A stretch of DNA of 37,747 nt from a virus: positions 1 to 37,747 of the IMG/VR virus record IMGVR_UViG_3300025093_001713, one strand, 5' to 3'. The notes below the pieces were generated by a model, which saw only the letters and a list, made by a program, of their open reading frames with translations, was not told the DNA's origin and did no database searches. The position numbers and the translations under genes were made by a program. Below are positions 3,890-37,747 of this stretch, piece after piece; the stretch's first letter is position 1; the number at the start of each line of letters is the position of its first letter.

Positions 3890-4906
3890 ATGCGTAACGA
3901 TACACGGCGCCTTTTCAACGCCTACTTGCAGCAACTGGCAGTGCTGAACGGGGTGGAATCAGCCGCCCAGTCATTCAACATTGAGCCGAGCGTTCAGCAG
4001 ACGCTGGAAACCCGTATCCAGGAGTCGAGTGGCTTCCTGCAGCGCATCAACATGCTTGGGGTGGGTCAGCAGTCTGGTGAAAAGGTCGGTCTCGGCATCG
4101 GCAGCCCCATTGCAGGCACCACTGACACCACACAGAACGACCGGGAGACTACTGATCCCACCGTCCTGGACGCGCATGGTTATTTCTGCACCCAGACCAA
4201 CTTTGACACGCACCTGCGCTACTCCAAGCTGGATGCATGGCGCAAGTTCCCCGACTTTCAGGCGCGGATCCGAGACGCGATTCTCAAGCGTCAGGCCCTG
4301 GACCGCATCATGATCGGCTTCAACGGTGTGCAGCGCGCCGCGAACTCGAACAAGACCACCAACCCGATGCTGCAGGACGTAAACGTCGGCTGGCTGCAGA
4401 AGTATCGCCTGCACGCTGCAGAGCGTGTACTCAGTGAAGTGGTCGATGCCAGCGGTGAGGTCACCTACGGCGCCGGCGGCGACTACGCCAACCTGGACGC
4501 GATCATCTATGACGCCGTCAACAACCTGATCGAGCCCTGGTACCAGGAAGACACCGAGCTGGTGGCCATCTGTGGCCGCAGCCTGATGCACGACAAGTAT
4601 TTCCCTCTAGTTGACTCCGACCAGGCGCCGAGCGAGCAGCTGGCCCGCGACATCATCATCAGCCAGAAGCGCATCGGTGGCCTGCCTGCCGTACGTGTGC
4701 CGTTCTTCCCGGCCAACGCCGTCATGGTCACCCGCCTGGATAACCTGTCGATCTACTGGCAGGAAGAAACCCGCCGCCGGACCATCGTCGACAACGCCAA
4801 GCGCGATCGGATCGAGAACTTCGAATCCAGCAACGAGGCTTACGTCATTGAGGACTACGCCTGCGGCGCCCTGGTCGAGAACATCACCCCTTATACCGCG
4901 CCCTGA
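3890..4906 (+). CDS. N: Major capsid protein (P2 gpN-like)
   Basis: 338-aa ORF directly after the scaffold gene, with a GGAG RBS. Its size and position match P2 gpN, and a strong terminator/attenuator follows, as expected for a highly expressed capsid gene. Confidence 0.9.
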   Translation: MRNDTRRLFNAYLQQLAVLNGVESAAQSFNIEPSVQQTLETRIQESSGFLQRINMLGVGQQSGEKVGLGIGSPIAGTTDTTQNDRETTDPTVLDAHGYFCTQTNFDTHLRYSKLDAWRKFPDFQARIRDAILKRQALDRIMIGFNGVQRAANSNKTTNPMLQDVNVGWLQKYRLHAAERVLSEVVDASGEVTYGAGGDYANLDAIIYDAVNNLIEPWYQEDTELVAICGRSLMHDKYFPLVDSDQAPSEQLARDIIISQKRIGGLPAVRVPFFPANAVMVTRLDNLSIYWQEETRRRTIVDNAKRDRIENFESSNEAYVIEDYACGALVENITPYTAP

Positions 4907-4928
4907 TTTGCCTGATGGGTAGAGCCTT

Positions 4929-4956
4929 GCTGCCGGAGCGATCCGGCAGCTTTTTT
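4929..4956 (+). terminator. Rho-independent terminator/attenuator after the capsid gene
   Basis: GCTGCCGG-agcgat-CCGGCAGC is a perfect 8-bp stem, followed by TTTTTT. Confidence 0.8.
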
Positions 4957-4975
4957 ACACCAAGGAGACCGAACA

Positions 4976-5962
4976 ATGACCCGCAAACTCACGCCAGCCG
5001 CACGGCACATGGCCAAGGTAGCCGCGACCAACGCTGCTACGATCGCCGCCGCTCAACAGGGCACCATGGCCGACGCTACCGTGTATGAACAGCACCTGGC
5101 CAAGCTGTACCAGGACCGCTCCCGCCTCAAGAACATCGCATCCACCCAGGGCAAGGTAGCGCTCAAAAAGCAGCTGCTGGATGGGTACGACGATTACGTC
5201 AAGGGCGTGCTTGAAAGCGGGGCAGGGGTGCAGGACGAGGTATTCACCACGATCATGCTCTGGGCCATCGACGCGGAAAAATACACTCAGGCCCTGCTGA
5301 TGGCTGAATACGTGCTCGAGCACGAGCTCAAGCTCGCCGATCGCTTCGAGCGTCCACCGGCCACCATGGTTGCCGAAGAGATCGCAACCTCGGCCCTGAA
5401 CAAGCTCAAGGCCGACAAGCCGTTCAACCTGGCCATCCTGGAAACCGCCGAATCGATCACCCGCAAACATGACATGCACGACCAGGCCCGCGCCAAGATT
5501 CACCTGGCGATCGGCAAGGCCCGCCTGCTTGGGTTTAACGAGGAGGAGGTCACCCCCGAGTCTTTGCCATCCCTTGCTGAAGCGCAGAAGCACATCACCC
5601 GCGCCATCGAGCTTCACGAAAACTGCGGTGGGAAGAAAGACCTTGAAAAGGTCAATCGCCTGCTGAAGAAACATGCGGATCCTGTTAACCCCGAGCCCGG
5701 TACCGGCACCACCACAGAAGGCGAAAAGCCAGCGGACCAACCAACCGCTGATGCCCCAGCCAATGAAGGTGACGCCGGCGCCGCAGATGAAAGCACCAGC
5801 CTCACGGCAGATCCAGCCGCGGCCGCTGATGCCAACATCGAGCCGGGCCAGGGCGACAGCTCAACGGAAGAAACGAAGCCGGCCATAGCGCCTGCAGTCG
5901 AATCGCCGAAAGCAGCTGCCGCCCCAGCCAAGCCCGGGAAGAACAAGAAACCCGCTAACTGA
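4976..5962 (+). CDS. M: Terminase small/endonuclease subunit (P2 gpM-like) with a long low-complexity C-terminal tail
   Basis: Position after N and before L, with an AAGGAG RBS. The first ~240 aa fit gpM size and position. The last ~90 aa are rich in P, A, E, T and G. Confidence 0.8.
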   Translation: MTRKLTPAARHMAKVAATNAATIAAAQQGTMADATVYEQHLAKLYQDRSRLKNIASTQGKVALKKQLLDGYDDYVKGVLESGAGVQDEVFTTIMLWAIDAEKYTQALLMAEYVLEHELKLADRFERPPATMVAEEIATSALNKLKADKPFNLAILETAESITRKHDMHDQARAKIHLAIGKARLLGFNEEEVTPESLPSLAEAQKHITRAIELHENCGGKKDLEKVNRLLKKHADPVNPEPGTGTTTEGEKPADQPTADAPANEGDAGAADESTSLTADPAAAADANIEPGQGDSSTEETKPAIAPAVESPKAAAAPAKPGKNKKPAN

Positions 5963-12393: not shown

Positions 12394-14217
12394 ATGGCAG
12401 ATCTGCCCTTGGACGAAGCGGTACAACGTTTTCTCAGTAATGAAAAGCGGGTGAATATTTTTATAAACTCACCATCAGGTGAGGAATCGTTTCAGACTAG
12501 CGAGGGCCAAACGATAGCTGTTCTACAGAAAATCGTAGAAGCTGCATTGCTATCAAATGGCATTTACCCGGATGTAGCAAGCGGAGTAGCCGCTCTTGCA
12601 GATGAGGAATATTTCAGTGTCCCCAGCTCCTCAGACGATGGATACCTCGATCTATTTCGACGATTCGGAACTACTGCTAATTATGTAAAAACCTACCCGT
12701 CACTAGAAGGCGCCTCTAATCCTGTAGCTTTTACCTATGGAGAGTCTTCACCAAGAGAAACGGGTGGAAAAGTAATAGCAGACTTAGAGCTTGATGACTT
12801 AGAAGTGTTGGTAGGAGGGCAAAATATAAGGATGCTCGATGCGGCCGGCAAAGTTTTCTTGGAATTAACGAGAGAGGCGGTAAAACTAAACAACCTCTCT
12901 ATTAAAAGCCTTCTCCAGGCTGCTGATATAGAAACTGATAGAATAGAAGGGCCCGATTGGTTTGATTTTCAATCATCGAATGTATCGGTTAGCTTAAAGC
13001 CGGGACGTAAAGCAGCGCTGGTTTTCGAGTCGCAAGGCGTGGAACTCCTGACTTTCGACACCGAAAATAATGTTGTGCATATTCTCGGCAATTCATCCAA
13101 TCCAAATCAAGAGGATGTCGAACCCGTTCCCGATCCACTTTATGTAGAGTCCGGTCCGTCATTGTACTTTGATACGACAGACCCGATTTTCACTGAGCGA
13201 GTTTTTCAGGGCATCCCATCTATCGCGCGGACTGGAAGCAGACTGTGGTGTTGCTGGTACGGCGATGATGACTTAAGCACTTCTGGTTTTGGTGAAGGTC
13301 CTGGTAACTTTGCAATCCTGGGCTATTCAGATGATAGCGGCGCTACTTGGGCTGAGCACGGATATATCAAGTTTCTGGATGACCCCGCGAAACGAGTGTT
13401 TGATATTCAGGCCTGGACTGATCCTGACGGCAAGTTGTGGGTTTTCTTTGCTGTGTGCGGCGGCAACTCTTTAATGGACGGTGTAGAAGGGGCCTGGGCT
13501 GTCAGTTGCAAGAATCCAGAGGGGGAAATTCCGAACTGGTCAACTCCATGGCGTCTGTCGTATTACGGCGTACCGATGCAGCCTGTAGTAATAAACGAGC
13601 AAGTTTATGTCCCGATTGACTATTGGGGCGGAAACGTCAGGCCCGGGGTTGTTGCGCAACGCCCTGATCTTGTCGGCAAGAGACTGTTCCGGCTCGATTA
13701 TCGTAATCGCAAAGCCGAGTACCACTCTACGTTGCCAGCCAACATTGCGGGCAACTCGTTTGACGAAACCAACTTAACACAGCTATTTGACGGGCGCTGG
13801 CTTGCCGCATACCGGACTACTGGGCCGACTGAGTATTCAATATCAGAAGACGACGGCAAAACCTGGACGGCGTCGCAGGTGTGGGCCGCCCTTGGCGACA
13901 ACCCTTCTTCGAGAGTATTTGTGGCAGCGACTCCAAGCGGCCGGCTTCTGGTTTGCTATAACGCGAGCGCCGTTAGAGATAAGTTGACTGTGGCGATATC
14001 GGAGGACGGCGGTGATAGTTTTCCATTCTCTGTATTAATTGATGCGAGAGGTTCAACGTCTTATCCGGGGGTAACCTTTGGTGAAAATGGAGAGATATAC
14101 GTAACTTACGATTACAACCGAACTTCGGATAAGATCGTCTACTGCGCGGTTGTTAACGAACCGGAAATTATCGCTGGGACTTCTGTTCCTCAACTCAACA
14201 TAGTGAGTGATAAGTAA
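12394..14217 (+). CDS. Tailspike-like protein with a BNR/Asp-box (sialidase-fold) beta-propeller domain; candidate depolymerase or receptor-binding protein
   Basis: 607 aa in an AT-rich insert between I and H. It has three Asp-box motifs (SDDSGATW, SEDDGKTW, SEDGGDSF) and a sialidase-like first-blade motif FQGIPSIARTGSRLW in which the Arg of the canonical RIP is replaced by Gly. GGAGAG RBS. Confidence 0.7.
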   Translation: MADLPLDEAVQRFLSNEKRVNIFINSPSGEESFQTSEGQTIAVLQKIVEAALLSNGIYPDVASGVAALADEEYFSVPSSSDDGYLDLFRRFGTTANYVKTYPSLEGASNPVAFTYGESSPRETGGKVIADLELDDLEVLVGGQNIRMLDAAGKVFLELTREAVKLNNLSIKSLLQAADIETDRIEGPDWFDFQSSNVSVSLKPGRKAALVFESQGVELLTFDTENNVVHILGNSSNPNQEDVEPVPDPLYVESGPSLYFDTTDPIFTERVFQGIPSIARTGSRLWCCWYGDDDLSTSGFGEGPGNFAILGYSDDSGATWAEHGYIKFLDDPAKRVFDIQAWTDPDGKLWVFFAVCGGNSLMDGVEGAWAVSCKNPEGEIPNWSTPWRLSYYGVPMQPVVINEQVYVPIDYWGGNVRPGVVAQRPDLVGKRLFRLDYRNRKAEYHSTLPANIAGNSFDETNLTQLFDGRWLAAYRTTGPTEYSISEDDGKTWTASQVWAALGDNPSSRVFVAATPSGRLLVCYNASAVRDKLTVAISEDGGDSFPFSVLIDARGSTSYPGVTFGENGEIYVTYDYNRTSDKIVYCAVVNEPEIIAGTSVPQLNIVSDK

Positions 14218-15344
14218 TGAAGATATCTGGATTTTCCTGGCCTCGAGTAACTAACTGGGCGCCATACCGTGCGGCATTGGGTGATTCAGTCGAAAGTCAG
14301 CCAGCGGGCGGTACGGTATCCTACTCGGAGCTTGTGGACGTTTCTGCGCTTCCCGCCACCTCGGCGGGGCTCCGCTGGCGCGGTGGGCTCAATCTTAAAG
14401 ACGGCAAGGTCTTGATGCTCCCGGCCCATAGCGATGTGGGTAACTTCTACGTCTTCAACCCGTCGAACAATCAGCTAACTGTAGACTCTAATATAGGCGC
14501 ATGGGGCGGCCCTGGTGAATTCTGGGGCGGCGCTTTGTTGAATGACGGGCGTGCAGTTATCGCGCCATTCACCCACCCGGACATTAAAATATACGACCCG
14601 GTATCGAAAATTATGTCCTCGGTATCTACCGGCGCCGGGGCAGGCGGCAACAAATTCCAGGGAGCTGTGACGCTTCTGGATGGCCGAGTCTTGTTCGCCC
14701 CCTACGACTTCTCTAGCGTGAGCTGGTTGACTGCTGATGGCACTGCTTTTGTCACTGGGCCTGCTCACGGCAGAGGGTTAAAGGCGTTCTCGGGTGCTGT
14801 ACTCATGCCAAGCGGCAAGGTGCTGCTTGTTCCGCATCAGTCTACGCACTTTGGTATTTTCGACCCGTCCGACAACAGCTTCGCTTTGGGGCCAGCCCAC
14901 GGCAAGACAGTAGTAGGCCCTGCCATTTTTGGTGGCGGGCTGCTCATGCCGAACGGCAAAGTTTTCGTAATACCTGCCCGAGCCGATTCGGGCATGGTAT
15001 TCGACCCTGTAGAAGGGACCGCAGTAAATGCAGGTGCGCTTACTGCGCACACATCCGAGTGGTATTTGGGCGGCGCCATTCTGCCAGACGGTCGGGTAGC
15101 TTTAGCTCCTGGGTTTCAGCCGAACATATCAGTGTTCGATCCTGATTCTGTTCTGATTAGCCAAGGGGCTTCCATTGGGGCCCTGGCCAATCCGCCGTGG
15201 TTTACAAATGCCGTATCGATGGTTGATGGCCGAGTGCTCCTGATTCCCGCTAGGAGCGAGTTCCTCTCGGCAGTTTCCTTGGACGGTCATGAGGGTGGCC
15301 TTCCGGCAGTGGCGCTTCAAAGCGGTTATCTCAACAGGGCTTAA
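14217..15344 (+). CDS. Seven-bladed beta-propeller (Kelch-like repeat) protein, unknown function
   Basis: 375 aa. The start overlaps the upstream stop (TAATG). There are seven repeats of roughly 45-50 aa, each with the core G(G/A)xLLxDG(R/K)VLxxP...(V/I)FDP. Confidence 0.7.
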   Translation: MKISGFSWPRVTNWAPYRAALGDSVESQPAGGTVSYSELVDVSALPATSAGLRWRGGLNLKDGKVLMLPAHSDVGNFYVFNPSNNQLTVDSNIGAWGGPGEFWGGALLNDGRAVIAPFTHPDIKIYDPVSKIMSSVSTGAGAGGNKFQGAVTLLDGRVLFAPYDFSSVSWLTADGTAFVTGPAHGRGLKAFSGAVLMPSGKVLLVPHQSTHFGIFDPSDNSFALGPAHGKTVVGPAIFGGGLLMPNGKVFVIPARADSGMVFDPVEGTAVNAGALTAHTSEWYLGGAILPDGRVALAPGFQPNISVFDPDSVLISQGASIGALANPPWFTNAVSMVDGRVLLIPARSEFLSAVSLDGHEGGLPAVALQSGYLNRA

Positions 15345-22029: not shown

Positions 22030-22461
22030 ATGATGATGGCCCTGGGGCTGTATGTGTTCGGCCTGGATACCGCCGCCTACCAGGACTTCCAGCGGCAAAC
22101 CAACTGGCGGCACCCCAGCAGCAACCGTGTGGGTGCTGCGCCGGTGCGCCAGTTTGTGGGCAAGGGTGAAGACACTATCACCCTGTCTGGCTTGATTCTG
22201 CCGGAGTTCAGCGGCAAGCGGCTGTCCCTCGACGCCCTGCGGCTGATGGCAGACACCGGCAAGGCCTGGCCCATGGTCGAGGGCACCGGCCGCATTTACG
22301 GGCTGTGGAGCATCGAGAGCATCAGCGAGAACAACACCCTGTTCTTCAGCGATGGCGCACCGCGGCGGATCGACTTCAGCATCACCCTGCAGCGCGAAGA
22401 CGACAGCCGCCTCGAGCTGCTCGGCAACCTGGCTGAAACCATAGGGAACATCCTCAGATGA
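22030..22461 (+). CDS. U: Tail protein U (P2 gpU-like)
   Basis: 143 aa. LG.YVF.L.TA.YQ...R...WRH....RVG..P..QF.G.G.D.ITL.G is the gpU pattern. Confidence 0.9.
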   Translation: MMMALGLYVFGLDTAAYQDFQRQTNWRHPSSNRVGAAPVRQFVGKGEDTITLSGLILPEFSGKRLSLDALRLMADTGKAWPMVEGTGRIYGLWSIESISENNTLFFSDGAPRRIDFSITLQREDDSRLELLGNLAETIGNILR

Positions 22462-23678
22462 TCGAGCAGCTCACCAGCCACACCGCGCCGGCGTTCCGCC
22501 TGGCCGTCGACGGCCGCGACATCACCCCCAAGGTCAACAACCGCCTGCTGCGCCTCACGCTCACAGACAACCGCGGCATCGAGGCCGACCAGCTCGATCT
22601 GACCCTGCACGACCACGACGGACTGCTCGCCATACCGCCGCGCCGCGCGGTGATCGACCTCTGGTTGGGCTGGCAGGGCAACGCCCTGGTGTACAAGGGC
22701 AGTTTCACCGTGGACGAGGTAGAGCATTCCGGCGCCCCGGATGTGCTTATGATCCGCGCCCGCAGCGCCGACATGCGCGCCGGCCTGACGCGCAAACGCG
22801 AGCGCAGCTGGCACCAGACCACCCTGGGCGAGATCATCGCCAGCGTGGCCGCAGCGTACAGCCTCATCCCGGTGGTCGATCGCGTGCTCGGCCAGATCCC
22901 GGTACCGCATCTGGACCAGGTGGACGAATCAGACGCCAACCTGCTCACCCGCCTGGGTACCGACCACGACGCGATCGCCACCGTAAAGGCCGGCCATCTG
23001 CTGCTGCTGCCCGTAGGGGCCAGCAAAACCGCCAGCGGGGTCAACCTGCCGCACATCACGCTCACCCGCCGCGACGGCGACAGCCACCGCTACCTGGTCG
23101 CCGATCGGGACGCCTACACCGGCGTGCGCGCCTACTACTACGACCCCAACAGCGCAGAACGGCTCGAGGCGATCATCGGCACCGAAGACAACATCAAAAC
23201 CCTGCGCCACGTGTATGCCAACGAGCAAAGCGCCCTGCAGGCTGCCCGGGCGGAATGGCGACGGCTGCAACGTGGCCTGGCTACCCTCAGCTACACCATC
23301 GCCCGCGGCCGGCCAGACCTTATCCCCGAGATGACCTTCAGCCTGGTCGGCATCAAGCAGCAGATCACCGAAGTGGTCTGGCTCTGCGCACGCCTCACCC
23401 ATGAGTTGAGCGACAGCGGCTACATCAACAGGCTGGAGCTAGAAAACCAATTGGCCGAAGACGAGGATCTGGCCGCGCTGGTAGAGGGCGGCTATACCGG
23501 CGTGCTGGCTTGGTACCGGGACAAAGACGGGGCCCAGAAGAAGATCACCCAGGGCGACCAGGCCAACCCCAAGCGGTTGACCCATCTGTATGCCAGTAAG
23601 GGGAGTGCGGAAAGGGCGGTGGAACGGGAGTTTGAGAGGTTGGAAGTGGGGCCCGGTGATTCGGCCCCTAATGCCTAG
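22458..23678 (+). CDS. D: Tail protein D / late control D (P2 gpD-like)
   Basis: 406 aa, the last gene of the tail operon, with its start coupled to the U stop. Confidence 0.9.
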   Translation: MIEQLTSHTAPAFRLAVDGRDITPKVNNRLLRLTLTDNRGIEADQLDLTLHDHDGLLAIPPRRAVIDLWLGWQGNALVYKGSFTVDEVEHSGAPDVLMIRARSADMRAGLTRKRERSWHQTTLGEIIASVAAAYSLIPVVDRVLGQIPVPHLDQVDESDANLLTRLGTDHDAIATVKAGHLLLLPVGASKTASGVNLPHITLTRRDGDSHRYLVADRDAYTGVRAYYYDPNSAERLEAIIGTEDNIKTLRHVYANEQSALQAARAEWRRLQRGLATLSYTIARGRPDLIPEMTFSLVGIKQQITEVVWLCARLTHELSDSGYINRLELENQLAEDEDLAALVEGGYTGVLAWYRDKDGAQKKITQGDQANPKRLTHLYASKGSAERAVEREFERLEVGPGDSAPNA

Positions 23679-23683
23679 GCAAT

Positions 23684-24865
23684 TTATTCTTTCGGTTTGG
23701 GAATAATACCCATTTTGCGTTGGAACTCCTCGAAAGGCTCCAGTCCCTTTGCCGCGTCCTTTATCAACTGATGATTGGGGTTAGCATCCAGGTTGCGGTG
23801 CATCTCGTTGAAAGGTTCCAATATTTTAGCCGCGTTCTTTATCAATTGTTGATTTGGAGGCTCTAGCAGTGATTTGAGATTGTCCGACATGGGTTGTAGC
23901 TTTAGAGCATTTTGAGTGGCCATTACCGAATCAAGCAAAGCCCTTGCATCACTGTTTAAAACTGGGCTGTTCTTGAGTTCATCTAGTTTGGCAGTTTTAG
24001 ACTCACCCCTTCTTGGCTGTTCAACTACTGCAGCGGCCTTGTTTCTTGGTTCGATCATGGCTTTCATCGCTTTATCGTAGAACAGTGATGCTGCCGCCAT
24101 CTCTCTGTCTGTGAAACCTAATCTGCGGGCTTCTTCCGACGCCTCGTCCATGGCCAATGAGATATTTCGCAGATACTGGTCATGCATCTCCTTGGTTAAC
24201 TTAATTATCAATCCCTTTTCCCGCGTTTTGAGTTCTTTGAGCTCGTTATTGCTTTGTTTTTTTAACTCGCCCTCCCGCTTGATAAAGTTATCTATTCTTT
24301 CTTGCAGCTCGCTTACTTCTAACCTGTGAACTTCCCCGTCTTTAGTTTTGTTCTCTCTGGCGACTTCGATCTGCTTTTGTGCGGCGTCCAGTTGTTCTTC
24401 AAGGTATTCGAACTTTTTATTAACGGAATTTAGCTGCCGATCCTTTGCATCAAGTTCAGCCTCCGACTCAGCGACCTTTCTATCCGCCTCGCGCCGGTTT
24501 TCACGGGCTTCCTCCCTTGACATAGGATTGGCATCAACGTGCTTGACGTAGTCTTCCTTCGCCTTCCGGATTTGCCAGCGCCAGTATTTCATCAGATAGC
24601 GGTTTGCAAAGGGGTAGCTAAAAACGAACGCCGCCGCGAAGATCCCTGGGTAGATAATGCCGAGCGTTATCCCATTCAGCCAGGGCGATTGCAGTGCGAA
24701 GTGGGCTTGTAAGACGGCCAGTTTATCTTCTACAGAGTTTGTAGAAAGCAGCCACAGAATCACCTTGTGATTCAACACCACCCAGGAAAGGATGAATGGC
24801 AGGAAAATGGGGTTGGTAACCCGCTCTGATATCTGCACCTTTACCGAATCCAATACTTCTCTCAT
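23684..24865 (-). CDS. Membrane-anchored coiled-coil protein of unknown function (cargo)
   Basis: 393 aa and AT-rich. It has two to three N-terminal hydrophobic helices (PIFLPFILSWVVL..., LGIIYPGIFAAAFVFSYPF), about 150 aa of E/K/R-rich heptad-like sequence, and a C-terminal tandem 26-aa repeat. A GAAAGGA RBS lies in the 12-nt gap after the upstream small gene. Confidence 0.75.
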   Translation of the reverse strand: MREVLDSVKVQISERVTNPIFLPFILSWVVLNHKVILWLLSTNSVEDKLAVLQAHFALQSPWLNGITLGIIYPGIFAAAFVFSYPFANRYLMKYWRWQIRKAKEDYVKHVDANPMSREEARENRREADRKVAESEAELDAKDRQLNSVNKKFEYLEEQLDAAQKQIEVARENKTKDGEVHRLEVSELQERIDNFIKREGELKKQSNNELKELKTREKGLIIKLTKEMHDQYLRNISLAMDEASEEARRLGFTDREMAAASLFYDKAMKAMIEPRNKAAAVVEQPRRGESKTAKLDELKNSPVLNSDARALLDSVMATQNALKLQPMSDNLKSLLEPPNQQLIKNAAKILEPFNEMHRNLDANPNHQLIKDAAKGLEPFEEFQRKMGIIPKPKE

Positions 24866-24877
24866 GTCGAATCCTTT

Positions 24878-25072
24878 CTATGGTTGATCTTGTTCAGGCT
24901 TAGACGTGGTCGCCTCGCCCGCGCTACTGGCGATAAAGGCAAAGCACGCGGCAAATCTCAACAGATCCGCCTGGTGCAAAGGGTGCATTCTTCGAAAATG
25001 CTGGATCAACAATGCTTCTTCATCGCTCAGCGGCTCTACGTTCGCGTTTCCTTCGAGTTGTTCGATAAACAT
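24878..25072 (-). CDS. Small soluble protein resembling the C-terminal tail of the adjacent XRE repressor (cargo)
   Basis: 64 aa from the ATG at 25072 (AGGAG 8 nt upstream). The track start at 25081 is a GTG lying inside that RBS. It aligns without gaps to the repressor C-terminus (see findings). Confidence 0.65.
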   Translation of the reverse strand: MFIEQLEGNANVEPLSDEEALLIQHFRRMHPLHQADLLRFAACFAFIASSAGEATTSKPEQDQP

Positions 25073-25199: not shown

Positions 25200-25583
25200 C
25201 TATTGGCAAAGCTCAAGCCCCTGATGGATTAGCGGCCCGACGCTGTACCTGGTACCTGGCAATTCAGGGTTCTCCAGCCAGATGTCATCGAGGGTATCCA
25301 TATCGCTCTGTGTGCGCGCTGGCCCGTTGAGCGGATAGGTATCACCCGTCACAACGTCAGCGACCACCACCGCATTCCTGCGGAGACATATCAGGTGCAT
25401 TTCCTCCATGCTGAATGGCCATTCCGGCCCATAGCTCTCGGCGCTGATTAGCACAATATTGGGCGCCTTAGGTGGAGTGGGGGCTGCGGGGAGCTGCTCA
25501 ATATCATTGGCATCTGGCGCATCGCCACAAGCAGACAATAGAGCTGCAGCAAAAGTCGCAATAAGTGCATGTCGAAATTCCAT
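25200..25583 (-). CDS. Lipoprotein, DUF2511/YebY-like (cargo)
   Basis: 127 aa with a signal peptide and lipobox LSAC (Cys19). The segment W.F..EE..L.C......V......YPLN...A......I....P......PLI.....LC matches my recollection of E. coli YebY. An AAGGAAAA RBS lies in the 41-nt gap after the repressor gene. Confidence 0.7.
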   Translation of the reverse strand: MEFRHALIATFAAALLSACGDAPDANDIEQLPAAPTPPKAPNIVLISAESYGPEWPFSMEEMHLICLRRNAVVVADVVTGDTYPLNGPARTQSDMDTLDDIWLENPELPGTRYSVGPLIHQGLELCQ

Positions 25584-25624: not shown

Positions 25625-25975
25625 TCAGCCCTCTTTTGACACTCCATACACAGCAGCCGTCTCGGCCAGGGCGGTGGTGAGGCGCTCAACGGCAGCCTGA
25701 TCAGGGGCGGGAAGTTTGCGGTAGTGGTCTAGCACTGATGCCTCTTCCTCTGTGAGCGATCCCTCCAAAGCAGGCGTTCTGCGGCCAGTTAGAACGTAGA
25801 GCACATCGACGCCATTCTCTGCGATTGCGGCAAGGTAGGGCGCGTCGGGGTGCCTGGAACCCTTCTCATAATTCAGCTGAGTGGTTTTCGTCACCCCGCC
25901 AAGAGCGCCGAAATCTTCTTGATTGAAGCCCAGCCTCCGGCGCTCTTCTTTCAGTCTTTCGCCGAAGTTCAACAA
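25625..25975 (-). CDS. Prophage repressor, XRE-family HTH (CI/C-like)
   Basis: HTH_XRE core FGERLKEERRRLGFNQEDFGALGGVTKTTQLNYEKGSRHPDAPYLAAIAENGVDVLYVLTG. It is divergent from a Cro/Ner-like gene. There is no in-frame ATG, so the probable start is a TTG at 25975 (or 25972) about 10 nt after AGGAA. The 214-aa track ORF upstream of this point is antisense to the cro-like gene and is rejected. Confidence 0.8.
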   Translation of the reverse strand: MLNFGERLKEERRRLGFNQEDFGALGGVTKTTQLNYEKGSRHPDAPYLAAIAENGVDVLYVLTGRRTPALEGSLTEEEASVLDHYRKLPAPDQAAVERLTTALAETAAVYGVSKEG

Positions 25976-25992
25976 ATGGGCACCATTTCCTG

Positions 25993-26022
25993 TTGACAGT
26001 TCAACGAATGTTGAACTAATCT
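25993..26022 (+). promoter_or_regulatory. Putative early (lytic) promoter
   Basis: -35 TTGACA (25993-25998), an 18-nt spacer, and -10 TAATCT (26017-26022). It lies about 30 nt upstream of the cro-like ATG. Confidence 0.5.
25999..26016. promoter_or_regulatory. Operator: inverted repeat GTTCAAC-N4-GTTGAAC
   Basis: Perfect 7-bp arms fill the -35/-10 spacer of the putative lytic promoter. Further half-sites occur at 25967-25973 (GTTCAAC, overlapping the repressor start codon) and 26031-26036 (TTGAAC), with a degenerate copy at 25992-25997 (GTTGAC). Confidence 0.6.
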
Positions 26023-26053
26023 CGTCTGTATTGAACACTTTTAAACCCTTTGG

Positions 26054-26296
26054 ATGACTATGCCAAACCTCAGAACCCCAGAGCAAGCGCGCGAATGGCT
26101 GGATCAGCAGGGCAAATCCGTGACTGAGTTCGCCGCCGAACATGATCTCGACCTGCACACCACCTACCAGGTGCTCTCCGGCGCCAAGAAAGGCAAACGG
26201 GGCGAGGCGCACAAAGCTGCCGTCGCACTGGGCATCAAGCAGGGCGAAGTACCCCTGCCGCCGTTTCAACCTGTACCCGCTCAGATCAGCCAGTAA
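26054..26296 (+). CDS. Cro/Ner-like DNA-binding protein (BcepMu gp16-like family)
   Basis: 80 aa, the first gene of the rightward early operon. RTPEQAREWLDQQGKSVTEFAAEHDLDLHTTYQVLSG..KG.RGEAHKAAVALGIK fits the small HTH family I recall as phage-associated BcepMu gp16. Confidence 0.75.
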   Translation: MTMPNLRTPEQAREWLDQQGKSVTEFAAEHDLDLHTTYQVLSGAKKGKRGEAHKAAVALGIKQGEVPLPPFQPVPAQISQ

Positions 26297-34694: not shown

Positions 34695-36309
<1,615 letters not shown>

Positions 36310-36553: not shown

Positions 36554-37747
36554 GTGGAGTCCAAGGTGACCAAAGCAACAGACACCTATGCCCTGTCTGC
36601 CTGGCGTGGCGAATTTGTTTTTAAAGAGACCGAGCAGGCCTATCGTGAGCACGTCAAGGAGGAAACCGCCCGCCACCTGATAGTGGCCCTGCGTGTATGG
36701 GCAGGATTGCTGGTCACCTTCGGCTGGTTGGATTATATCGCCCTGGGCATGAGCGAAGGCTTTTATCACCTGATGGGTATGCGGTTGTTTTCCGCGACCA
36801 TGGTGCTGATCTTCTCCGCGGTGATCAAGTATCGTCCCGGGCTGGCCCGTGACGGTGTTGGTGTGACCATCATCGAGGTGCTCGGCTTCTTCCTCTTCTT
36901 TATGATCTATTTCGTACGGCCGGACATCACCACCTGGAATATAGGGGTCACGGTCATTCTGCTGATCAGTATCTATATTTTCGTTCCCAACCGGATCGTC
37001 AATTCCAACCTGGTATCACTGTTCGGGATCCTCGGGACTCTCTACTGTGTTGCTCTGAACGGAGCCGAGCCCAGACTCCTGATAGGCCTGTTCTTCCTGC
37101 TCGGCCTGCCTACGACTATCGGTTACTTTGCCGGTGTCAGACTTAACCTGGGCAAGCGTCATCAATATGCCCTGTTCATGGAAACAGTGCAGGTCAACCA
37201 GTCCCTGCAGGCGGAGATCAAGCGCCGTGAAGCGCTCGAAGTCGAGCTCAAGCTTCAGGCGACCACCGATCCGCTGACCGGGCTGCTCAATCGCCGGCAA
37301 TACGAAAACCTGTTCTCCCGTGAGCAGGAGCGGGTAAAGCGCCATGGCAGCAAGCTGTCACTGTGCGTTGCCGATCTGGACCATTTCAAGAGGGTCAATG
37401 ACGAGCATGGTCACGACGCCGGTGACCAGGTGCTCAAGCACATTTCCGATCTTTTCGTGGACACGCTCCGGCATACGGACATCGTCGGGCGCTTTGGTGG
37501 CGAGGAGTTTATCCTGCTGTTGCCTGATACCGATCTCGACAATGCGCTGACGGTCATCAGCCGGCTGCGCGAGAAGCTGCAGGCCAGCCCGGTGAATGTG
37601 GGAGACAAGGTGCTCCAGGTTACCGCGACTTTTGCGGTCACGGAGGTGGTAGCAGAGGATGCCACCATCGAGGACGTGATTCGTCGCGCCGACAAGGCGC
37701 TCTACCAGGGCAAGGAGGCAGGCCGGAACCAGGTGGTGGCGAGCTGA
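36554..37747 (+). CDS. Membrane-bound diguanylate cyclase (GGDEF domain), host gene
   Basis: The N-terminal ~200 aa contain about six hydrophobic helices. The C-terminus has a GGDEF domain with the active-site motif GGEEF and an RxxD I-site (RHTD) five residues upstream. The start is a GTG at 36554 or at 36566; the latter has a GGTGGAG RBS. Confidence 0.88.
   Translation: MESKVTKATDTYALSAWRGEFVFKETEQAYREHVKEETARHLIVALRVWAGLLVTFGWLDYIALGMSEGFYHLMGMRLFSATMVLIFSAVIKYRPGLARDGVGVTIIEVLGFFLFFMIYFVRPDITTWNIGVTVILLISIYIFVPNRIVNSNLVSLFGILGTLYCVALNGAEPRLLIGLFFLLGLPTTIGYFAGVRLNLGKRHQYALFMETVQVNQSLQAEIKRREALEVELKLQATTDPLTGLLNRRQYENLFSREQERVKRHGSKLSLCVADLDHFKRVNDEHGHDAGDQVLKHISDLFVDTLRHTDIVGRFGGEEFILLLPDTDLDNALTVISRLREKLQASPVNVGDKVLQVTATFAVTEVVAEDATIEDVIRRADKALYQGKEAGRNQVVAS

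Follow-up and report, generated by a model that had tools for sequence, protein, structure and literature searches.

The stretch of viral DNA analysed here, IMG/VR record IMGVR_UViG_3300025093_001713 (positions 1 to 37,747; this whole stretch of 37,747 nucleotides is called the window below), was assigned by its sequence to a phiCTX/P2-like prophage. The subject of the analysis is one gene of this prophage, which encodes a protein of 393 amino acids with an N-terminal membrane module, a long charged helical region and a duplicated C-terminal motif. The gene is complete and occupies exactly the coordinates given in a preliminary description of the window, on the minus strand. It begins with an ATG codon, with an AAAGGA ribosome-binding site 6 nt 5' of the start, and an identical copy of the protein has been called on the Joint Genome Institute (JGI) contigs Ga0098074_1000024 and Ga0098073_1007847.

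The 393-residue protein and its family

An AlphaFold2 (AF2) model of the protein was built from an alignment of 80 family sequences. The model was all-helical, with a mean predicted local distance difference test score (pLDDT) of 79.9 and values above 85 at residues 1–200; its long helices spanned residues 61–112, 117–203, and 209–248. The gene and its parts are as follows, with the basis of each feature in brackets:

23684..24865, minus strand: complete gene of the 393-residue membrane and coiled-coil protein (list of open reading frames and sequence)
24530..24865, minus strand: conserved N-terminal membrane module, residues 1–112 (80-sequence alignment; AF2 pLDDT 86–98)
24746..24808, minus strand: hydrophobic helix 1, residues ~20–40, with a conserved Asn32-His-Lys in mid-helix (Kyte–Doolittle maximum 1.71)
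24611..24679, minus strand: hydrophobic helix 2, residues ~63–85 (Kyte–Doolittle maximum 1.80)
24491..24553, minus strand: conserved membrane-adjacent motif, predicted to be cytoplasmic, residues 105–125, DYVKHVDANPMSREEARENRR (family alignment)
24122..24517, minus strand: long charged helical region, probable coiled coil, residues 117–248 (AF2 helices, composition)
23858..24121, minus strand: orphan helical C-terminal region, residues 249–336 (AF2 pLDDT 42–82)
23697..23852, minus strand: duplicated 78-nt unit, in tandem, that encodes two 26-residue repeats (DNA repeat search, shuffles)

The membrane module is built, in order, of an amphipathic helix (residues 2–16), hydrophobic helix 1, a loop helix (residues 45–55), and hydrophobic helix 2 with a basic extension. 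Across the 80 aligned sequences, residues P19, N32, P73, and P85 were invariant, and R15, F24, W28, S41, and K48 were nearly so. The preliminary description had counted two to three hydrophobic helices at the N-terminus; two of them held up, and the third did not. When hydropathy was calculated on the Kyte–Doolittle scale in 19-residue windows with a threshold of 1.6, only the segments at ~19–40 and ~63–86 exceeded the threshold, and both were covered by AF2 helices (21–31/33–39 and 61–112, pLDDT >85). The first of these should be regarded as a borderline membrane-spanning helix, because its mean maximum hydropathy in the family was only 1.44, versus 1.90 for helix 2. Since conserved polar and proline residues lie within the hydrophobic helices, beside a variable head, the membrane module, which is the conserved part of the protein, is probably its functional core and not a passive anchor. 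A Foldseek search of the whole AF2 model, membrane module included, against PDB and BFVD gave no match at E ≤ 0.001.

The distribution of charged residues around the helices was biased. The 25 residues that follow helix 2 contained 5.8 Lys/Arg on average in the 80 sequences (7 in the Lys/Arg-rich stretch of the 393-residue protein), and the 20-residue loop between the helices contained 1.7 on average and was net acidic. By the positive-inside rule, this bias in Lys/Arg predicts an inner-membrane protein with both ends, the coil, and the head in the cytoplasm, and it would place the membrane-adjacent motif, whose family consensus is IEDETPLTxEExRxIR, on the same side. Contact with a partner at a distance from the membrane had been proposed earlier; with the coil and repeats predicted to face the cytoplasm, any such partner would therefore be intracellular.

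The charged, heptad-like stretch noted in the preliminary description was confirmed by composition, with D/E/K/R making up 47% of residues 101–230, and by the AF2 helices at 117–203 and 209–248. The heptad pattern was strongest at residues 127–168. Database searches matched this stretch only weakly, and only to proteins with coiled coils, among them SMC, LmuB, and JetC. Residues 249–336 could be aligned only to P0002, the closest full-length relative, and a search with residues 225–393 as a separate query returned no match. An amphipathic 26-residue motif, present in tandem, ends this orphan helical region. As had been described, the repetition is visible in the DNA, where the two 78-nt copies lie in register at 23697–23774 and 23775–23852 and are 73% identical; this repeat was not reported by Tandem Repeats Finder and was recovered by a separate repeat search. 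The protein repeats correspond to residues 337–359 and 363–385 and share 15 of 23 positions by direct count, not 14 as first stated. Their BLOSUM62 score was 75, compared with 28.4 ± 3.8 (maximum 41) in 300 shuffles. Because P0002 carries a single copy of the motif, the duplication is recent and lineage-specific, and the repeat is a minor feature of the protein.

The protein could not at first be assigned to a family, and this has changed: its N-terminal ~160 residues match a large uncharacterized family that has no Pfam, NCBIfam, or PADLOC entry. The corresponding PHROG is phrog_4780 (function unknown), which matched residues 1–225 with an E-value of 2.4e-14. Apart from the protein itself, a word-indexed protein search returned a single relative, P0002 (341 amino acids, 45% identity), and an exhaustive HMMER profile search over 1.84 billion representative proteins was required to reveal the family. 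With a cut-off of E ≤ 1e-3, that search yielded 1,256 representatives, of which 351 also passed E ≤ 1e-10; the proteins are typically 250–300 amino acids long, and nearly all of the matches were confined to residues 1 to ~180 of the query. Alignment of the 393-residue protein with the family by hhalign gave a probability of 99.7% (E-value 1.3e-25). The protein also has the family's layout, namely an N-terminal module of ~125 residues with ER..SP/ISW..WN and IEDETPLT-like motifs, a coil directly after it (the helix at residues 116–160 in the AF2 model of member P0017), and then a variable head. The membrane module and the start of the coil are common to phrog_4780 and the related phrog_13369, phrog_22645, and phrog_8191. 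None of these groups has an annotation or a tested member; the 393-residue protein is longer, and its C-terminal region falls outside the profiles.

A tblastn search with the 393-residue protein against 50,697 phage records gave no match, and the same query produced coiled-coil noise only when it was run against Pfam, NCBIfam, PADLOC, and the PDB sequences. The PDB search with the family profile returned similar noise and one weak MarR match, and a scan of IMG/VR with an alignment of the close subfamily found no match. One locus from the genome scan (L039) was discarded as a false positive, as the open reading frame there is a sulfate permease gene.

Beyond the coil, the family members diverge. 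The C-termini of 142 representatives fell into 59 clusters, the largest of which comprised 68 proteins, about half of the members examined, and corresponds to a MarR-like winged helix. Foldseek matched the AF2 model of P0017 to SlyA, MexR, and MarR with a probability of 1.0 over ~80 residues (root-mean-square deviation 2.3–3 Å). The 393-residue protein has no winged-helix head: its C-terminus is all-helical, without strands, and lies outside the MarR-like cluster. Examination of the ten longest members detected no enzymatic domain; all that they add is further winged-helix-like modules or a DUF1488 domain. This pattern of sequence variation indicates that the C-terminal head is swappable on a conserved membrane module.

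Some members are shorter. Protein P0004 (169 amino acids; loci L040–L042), the nearest of the relatives in P2-like prophages, stops ~50 residues into the coil and is identical on three contigs, and other family members of 164–185 amino acids exist. Such a membrane module with a short coil may represent a minimal form that still functions or a product of decay. A 94-residue open reading frame that follows P0004 was considered as a frameshifted C-terminus with the repeat motif and was dropped, since BLASTP gave no support.

Cargo position in prophages and other mobile elements

At the DNA level, the window's tape measure, U, and D genes are ~69% identical to those of phiCTX and other Peduoviridae. 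A 225-kb JGI metagenome contig that carries the identical protein has the gene order sheath, tube, gpE, tape measure, gpU, gpD, cargo block, helix-turn-helix repressor, Ogr/Delta, and Toprim primase. The gene of the 393-residue protein belongs to the accessory cargo of the prophage (it is a "moron"), its place being the variable block bounded by gene D and the CI-type repressor gene. Its neighbours are listed below:

22458..23678, plus strand: tail gene D, the convergent neighbour at the end of the late operon (Pfam Phage_GPD; similarity to phiCTX gene D)
24878..25072, minus strand: open reading frame of 64 amino acids, ending 12 nt before the 393-residue protein gene (JGI call)
25200..25583, minus strand: DUF2511/YebY-like predicted lipoprotein (Pfam PF10709, E-value 1.6e-14; phrog_2950)
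25625..26269, minus strand: CI-type helix-turn-helix repressor, first gene of the co-oriented block (NCBIfam RstR/DicA-type; Pfam HTH_3/HTH_31)

The gene is thus the last of four co-oriented genes (repressor, lipoprotein, 64-residue open reading frame, and 393-residue protein) and converges with gene D; their stop codons are separated by 5 nt. Because it lies on the repressor strand, its expression in the lysogen is probable. The G+C content across the gene is 0.44–0.51, versus 0.62–0.69 in the adjacent tail genes. The matching position in phiCTX is occupied by unrelated genes (orf28–31); orf28, the positional counterpart, was compared directly and rejected as a relative, being unrelated in sequence. 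Several cargo and defence hotspots have been described in P2-like phages (PMC13586616).

Two neighbours in the block deserve comment. The DUF2511/YebY-like protein, whose gene directly follows that of the repressor, has a LLSAC lipobox in its sequence and may be a second cargo item, acting on the cell envelope. The 64-residue open reading frame resembles the C-terminal tail of the repressor (BLASTP E-value 6e-5; motif LS/TxEEAxxLxHF/YRK/R...Q), and its product could modulate the repressor by tail mimicry. An open reading frame of 49 to 61 amino acids with the same motif follows the repressor gene of a related P2-like prophage (L041, 3312–3497, plus strand).

The genomic positions of other family members, for the recovery of which the IEDETPLT-like membrane-adjacent motif was used as a search pattern, were compared with that of the gene in the window. 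Every context that was inspected individually and had enough flanking sequence proved to be a mobile element. Three members lie in the matching cargo region of other P2-like prophages: the genes of P0004 (50% identical) and P0008 (~21%) are convergent with gene D, and that of P0029 (~18%) is located just downstream of the repressor. At twenty IMG/VR loci, the neighbours included tape measure, terminase, portal, and repressor genes. Phages EC.W1-9 and KO-TP1 carry lone family genes on the opposite strand, P0050 adjoins the integrase in a prophage whose tail genes are of lambda type, P0007 is part of an integrase/AlpA/DUF3987 island, and P0016 adjoins a HigB-like toxin gene and inovirus-like genes.

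A recurrent site was observed in Escherichia coli prophages (L046, L045, and L067–L069), where a slot for a single gene is found between the large terminase and portal genes, by a tRNA-Arg gene. The flanks of this slot occur in ~500 E. coli genomes, and its occupant varies between three diverged family alleles, Gp49-family and DUF2829 genes, and genes for other hypothetical proteins. The family alleles in the slot are oriented against the late genes; two of them were found in 25 and 34 of 5,426 genomes.

Clustering of the gene neighbours at 34 genome loci revealed no conserved partner family. Most members have their own upstream gap, which exceeds 60 nt, and mixed orientations among their neighbours. 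Only at seven of the 34 loci was the open reading frame upstream co-oriented and tightly coupled, and these open reading frames are mutually unrelated. The gene in the window thus conforms to the family, whose members are stand-alone genes of prophages, satellite-like elements, islands, and other mobile elements. Members at chromosomal loci were directly flanked by a mixture of genes, with many housekeeping genes and a few mobile-element or defence genes.

The cargo regions of related prophages contained other genes of note. In L041, a 220-residue cargo protein is encoded just upstream of the family member (4449–5111, plus strand); its C-terminus is BRCT-like by eye, and no Pfam match is on record. 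The matching cargo region of another P2-like prophage (L070, 3043–5665) includes a Dam-type methyltransferase gene, as well as a UmuD/UmuC-like pair (Peptidase_S24 and IMS) that adjoins the family member.

Candidate functions

A stand-alone cargo gene in the lysogeny orientation, with a conserved module and a swapped head, shows the pattern that would be expected of a phage–phage conflict gene. We therefore tentatively favour, as an interpretation that falls somewhat short of an even balance of probability, an accessory membrane protein that is expressed in the lysogen and serves in phage exclusion or abortive infection. According to this proposal, the C-terminal head would recognise a cytoplasmic ligand of an incoming phage, which would be a protein for the 393-residue protein and DNA for the winged-helix relatives. 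The membrane module might then permeabilise or depolarise the membrane, resulting in abortive infection; alternatively, it might hold the head at the inner membrane, at the point of phage genome entry, resulting in exclusion. Protection of the host cell against other viruses is a role for which the protein is a reasonable candidate, although an unproven one. A broader version of the proposal, in which the family would be a single-gene anti-phage system widespread in temperate phages, is possible and, in our judgement, rather unlikely. Such a system would consist of a fixed two-helix module, a coil, and interchangeable heads; it would intercept incoming phage DNA or protein at the inner membrane or act by membrane-based abortive infection, and swapping or duplication of heads would retune its specificity.

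A sensor or effector resembling abortive-infection and exclusion proteins had been suggested in the preliminary description. This interpretation is plausible and partly supported: the architecture and the genomic setting agree with it, and the view of the membrane segment as an anchor and the stress on the repeats need correction. No structural, secretion, or chemotaxis family was matched in the Pfam, NCBIfam, PDB sequence, and Foldseek PDB/BFVD searches, and the membrane segments found support; the exclusion reading was thus not refuted.

Several observations weigh against a defensive role. Literature searches with the E. coli protein accessions and with keywords found no experiment on any family member. 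No PADLOC-DB v2 model matched the 393-residue protein beyond the coil (the best was LmuB, with an E-value of 0.011), and when PADLOC was applied to 80 family members, only models of the coiled-coil type recurred. About 5 of 130 neighbours at the chromosomal loci matched defence or candidate-defence models, a count with no background control, and the indication of defence-island enrichment of the family is weak. The cargo position is equally compatible with other roles in lysogenic conversion. The topology is deduced solely from charge bias, and helix 1 is borderline. Signals from promoter and terminator scans around the block and from folding of its flanks did not exceed those of shuffled controls; for this reason, we only infer expression in the lysogen and co-transcription with the repressor.

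The strongest competitor is a non-defensive protein of lysogenic conversion or regulation, that is, a membrane-tethered adaptor or transcription regulator, which we consider unlikely. Such a protein would couple a signal from the envelope or membrane to a cytoplasmic target, for example in prophage maintenance or induction or in host gene expression, with the winged-helix relatives binding DNA and the 393-residue protein binding a protein via its repeats. The MarR-like winged helix that ends about half of the examined members agrees with this, as do the lack of an enzymatic effector domain in members examined, the lack of a defence model match, and the place of the gene behind a repressor and a small open reading frame resembling the repressor tail. 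However, neither a neighbouring target gene nor an operator context is conserved across the 34 loci, and the part that is conserved is the membrane module and not the DNA-binding head. Moreover, diverged alleles swap in shared prophage slots beside toxin-like cargo, as conflict genes more typically do.

A membrane toxin of an addiction or toxin–antitoxin-like system, stabilising the prophage instead of acting on other phages, with the 64-residue open reading frame as its antidote or regulator, appears improbable. The proximity of that open reading frame, which ends 12 nt before the start codon, would suit such a pair, and two hydrophobic helices followed by a basic stretch resemble small membrane toxins and holins; in addition, one relative (P0016) is a neighbour of a HigB-like toxin gene. 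The explanation is weakened because the 64-residue open reading frame has no homologue beside any other member, the closest relatives included. Nor do the upstream gaps fit, as they mostly exceed 60 nt, and the coupled upstream open reading frames at 7 of 34 loci are unrelated to one another.

Least credible of all is a holin- or antiholin-like component that times prophage lysis: two hydrophobic helices, ends predicted to be cytoplasmic, and a charged tail recall class II holins, but the gene is not part of the late operons and has the opposite orientation to them, its E. coli relatives are likewise directed against the late genes, 393 amino acids is far above holin size, and no PHROG lysis family was matched. 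Class II holins are two-helix proteins with cytoplasmic ends. The protein resembles them in this predicted topology only; their other marks are a length below ~150 amino acids, location in a lysis cassette, and late expression.

The favoured role in exclusion or abortive infection was also compared with known systems. The membrane-bound nuclease SNIPE, with DUF4041 and GIY-YIG domains, has an inner-membrane anchor and, in the published model, acts at genome injection (bioRxiv 10.1101/2025.11.03.685801). It provides a precedent among defence proteins, and the likeness to the protein described here is that of a single-gene, elongated, inner-membrane-anchored protein with functional domains facing the cytoplasm, and the N-terminal region is diverse among SNIPE homologues. 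SNIPE differs in its single membrane helix, its periplasmic N-terminus, its nuclease, and its DNA-binding DUF4041 domain; in the 393-residue protein, 80 family members, and the ten longest members, Pfam scans detected no DUF4041 and no GIY-YIG/T5orf172 or other nuclease domain. The arrangement is also reversed, since SNIPE combines a variable anchor with a conserved enzyme, whereas the phrog_4780-like family combines a conserved membrane module with a variable head.

SieA of P22, Imm of T4, and gp15 of HK97 are inner-membrane cargo proteins of phages or prophages that are thought to block the entry of other phage genomes. They are small and, unlike the family described here, have no long coiled coil or swappable head, and Pfam and PHROG scans of the 393-residue protein found nothing resembling them. 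The two-helix membrane effectors of abortive-infection systems, namely those of CBASS and Pycsar and RexB of lambda, couple a conserved membrane module to separate recognition, with membrane depolarisation as the expected outcome. These effectors are activated by a partner encoded next to them, whereas the phrog_4780-like family has no conserved partner at the 34 loci, and PADLOC models of systems of this type gave no match. The PADLOC and NCBIfam matches to LmuB of Lamassu and JetC of Wadjet were weak (E-values 0.01–0.3). Because they were confined to the coil (residues 100–295), the similarity to LmuB, JetC, and SMC looks compositional; no SMC-like ATPase head region was seen in the 393-residue protein, and SMC_prok_B scored 12.6 bits against a cut-off of 567.

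If the family is defensive, it would represent a compact single-gene system without an enzymatic domain, with a working membrane module and an exchangeable head, and thus a clean model for the swapping of recognition modules on a fixed membrane effector. More than 1,000 sequence clusters now listed as "hypothetical" would then receive an annotation, including recurrent cargo of E. coli and P2-like prophages. If it is not defensive, this unannotated and highly conserved membrane module still merits a family entry.

Other regions of the prophage

A second stretch of low G+C content (0.51–0.54) was found in the tail-fibre region at 12394–15344 on the plus strand. It encodes a 607-residue BNR_2 (sialidase-like) protein and a 375-residue protein without a family match, and it is probably a swapped host-recognition module. 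At its right end, the prophage carries a large serine recombinase gene (34695–36254, plus strand) that overlaps a tRNA-Met gene (36233–36309, minus strand), followed by a host GGDEF gene (36554–37747, plus strand). Tyrosine integrases are usual in P2-like phages; a serine recombinase is also encoded in the related prophage L072.

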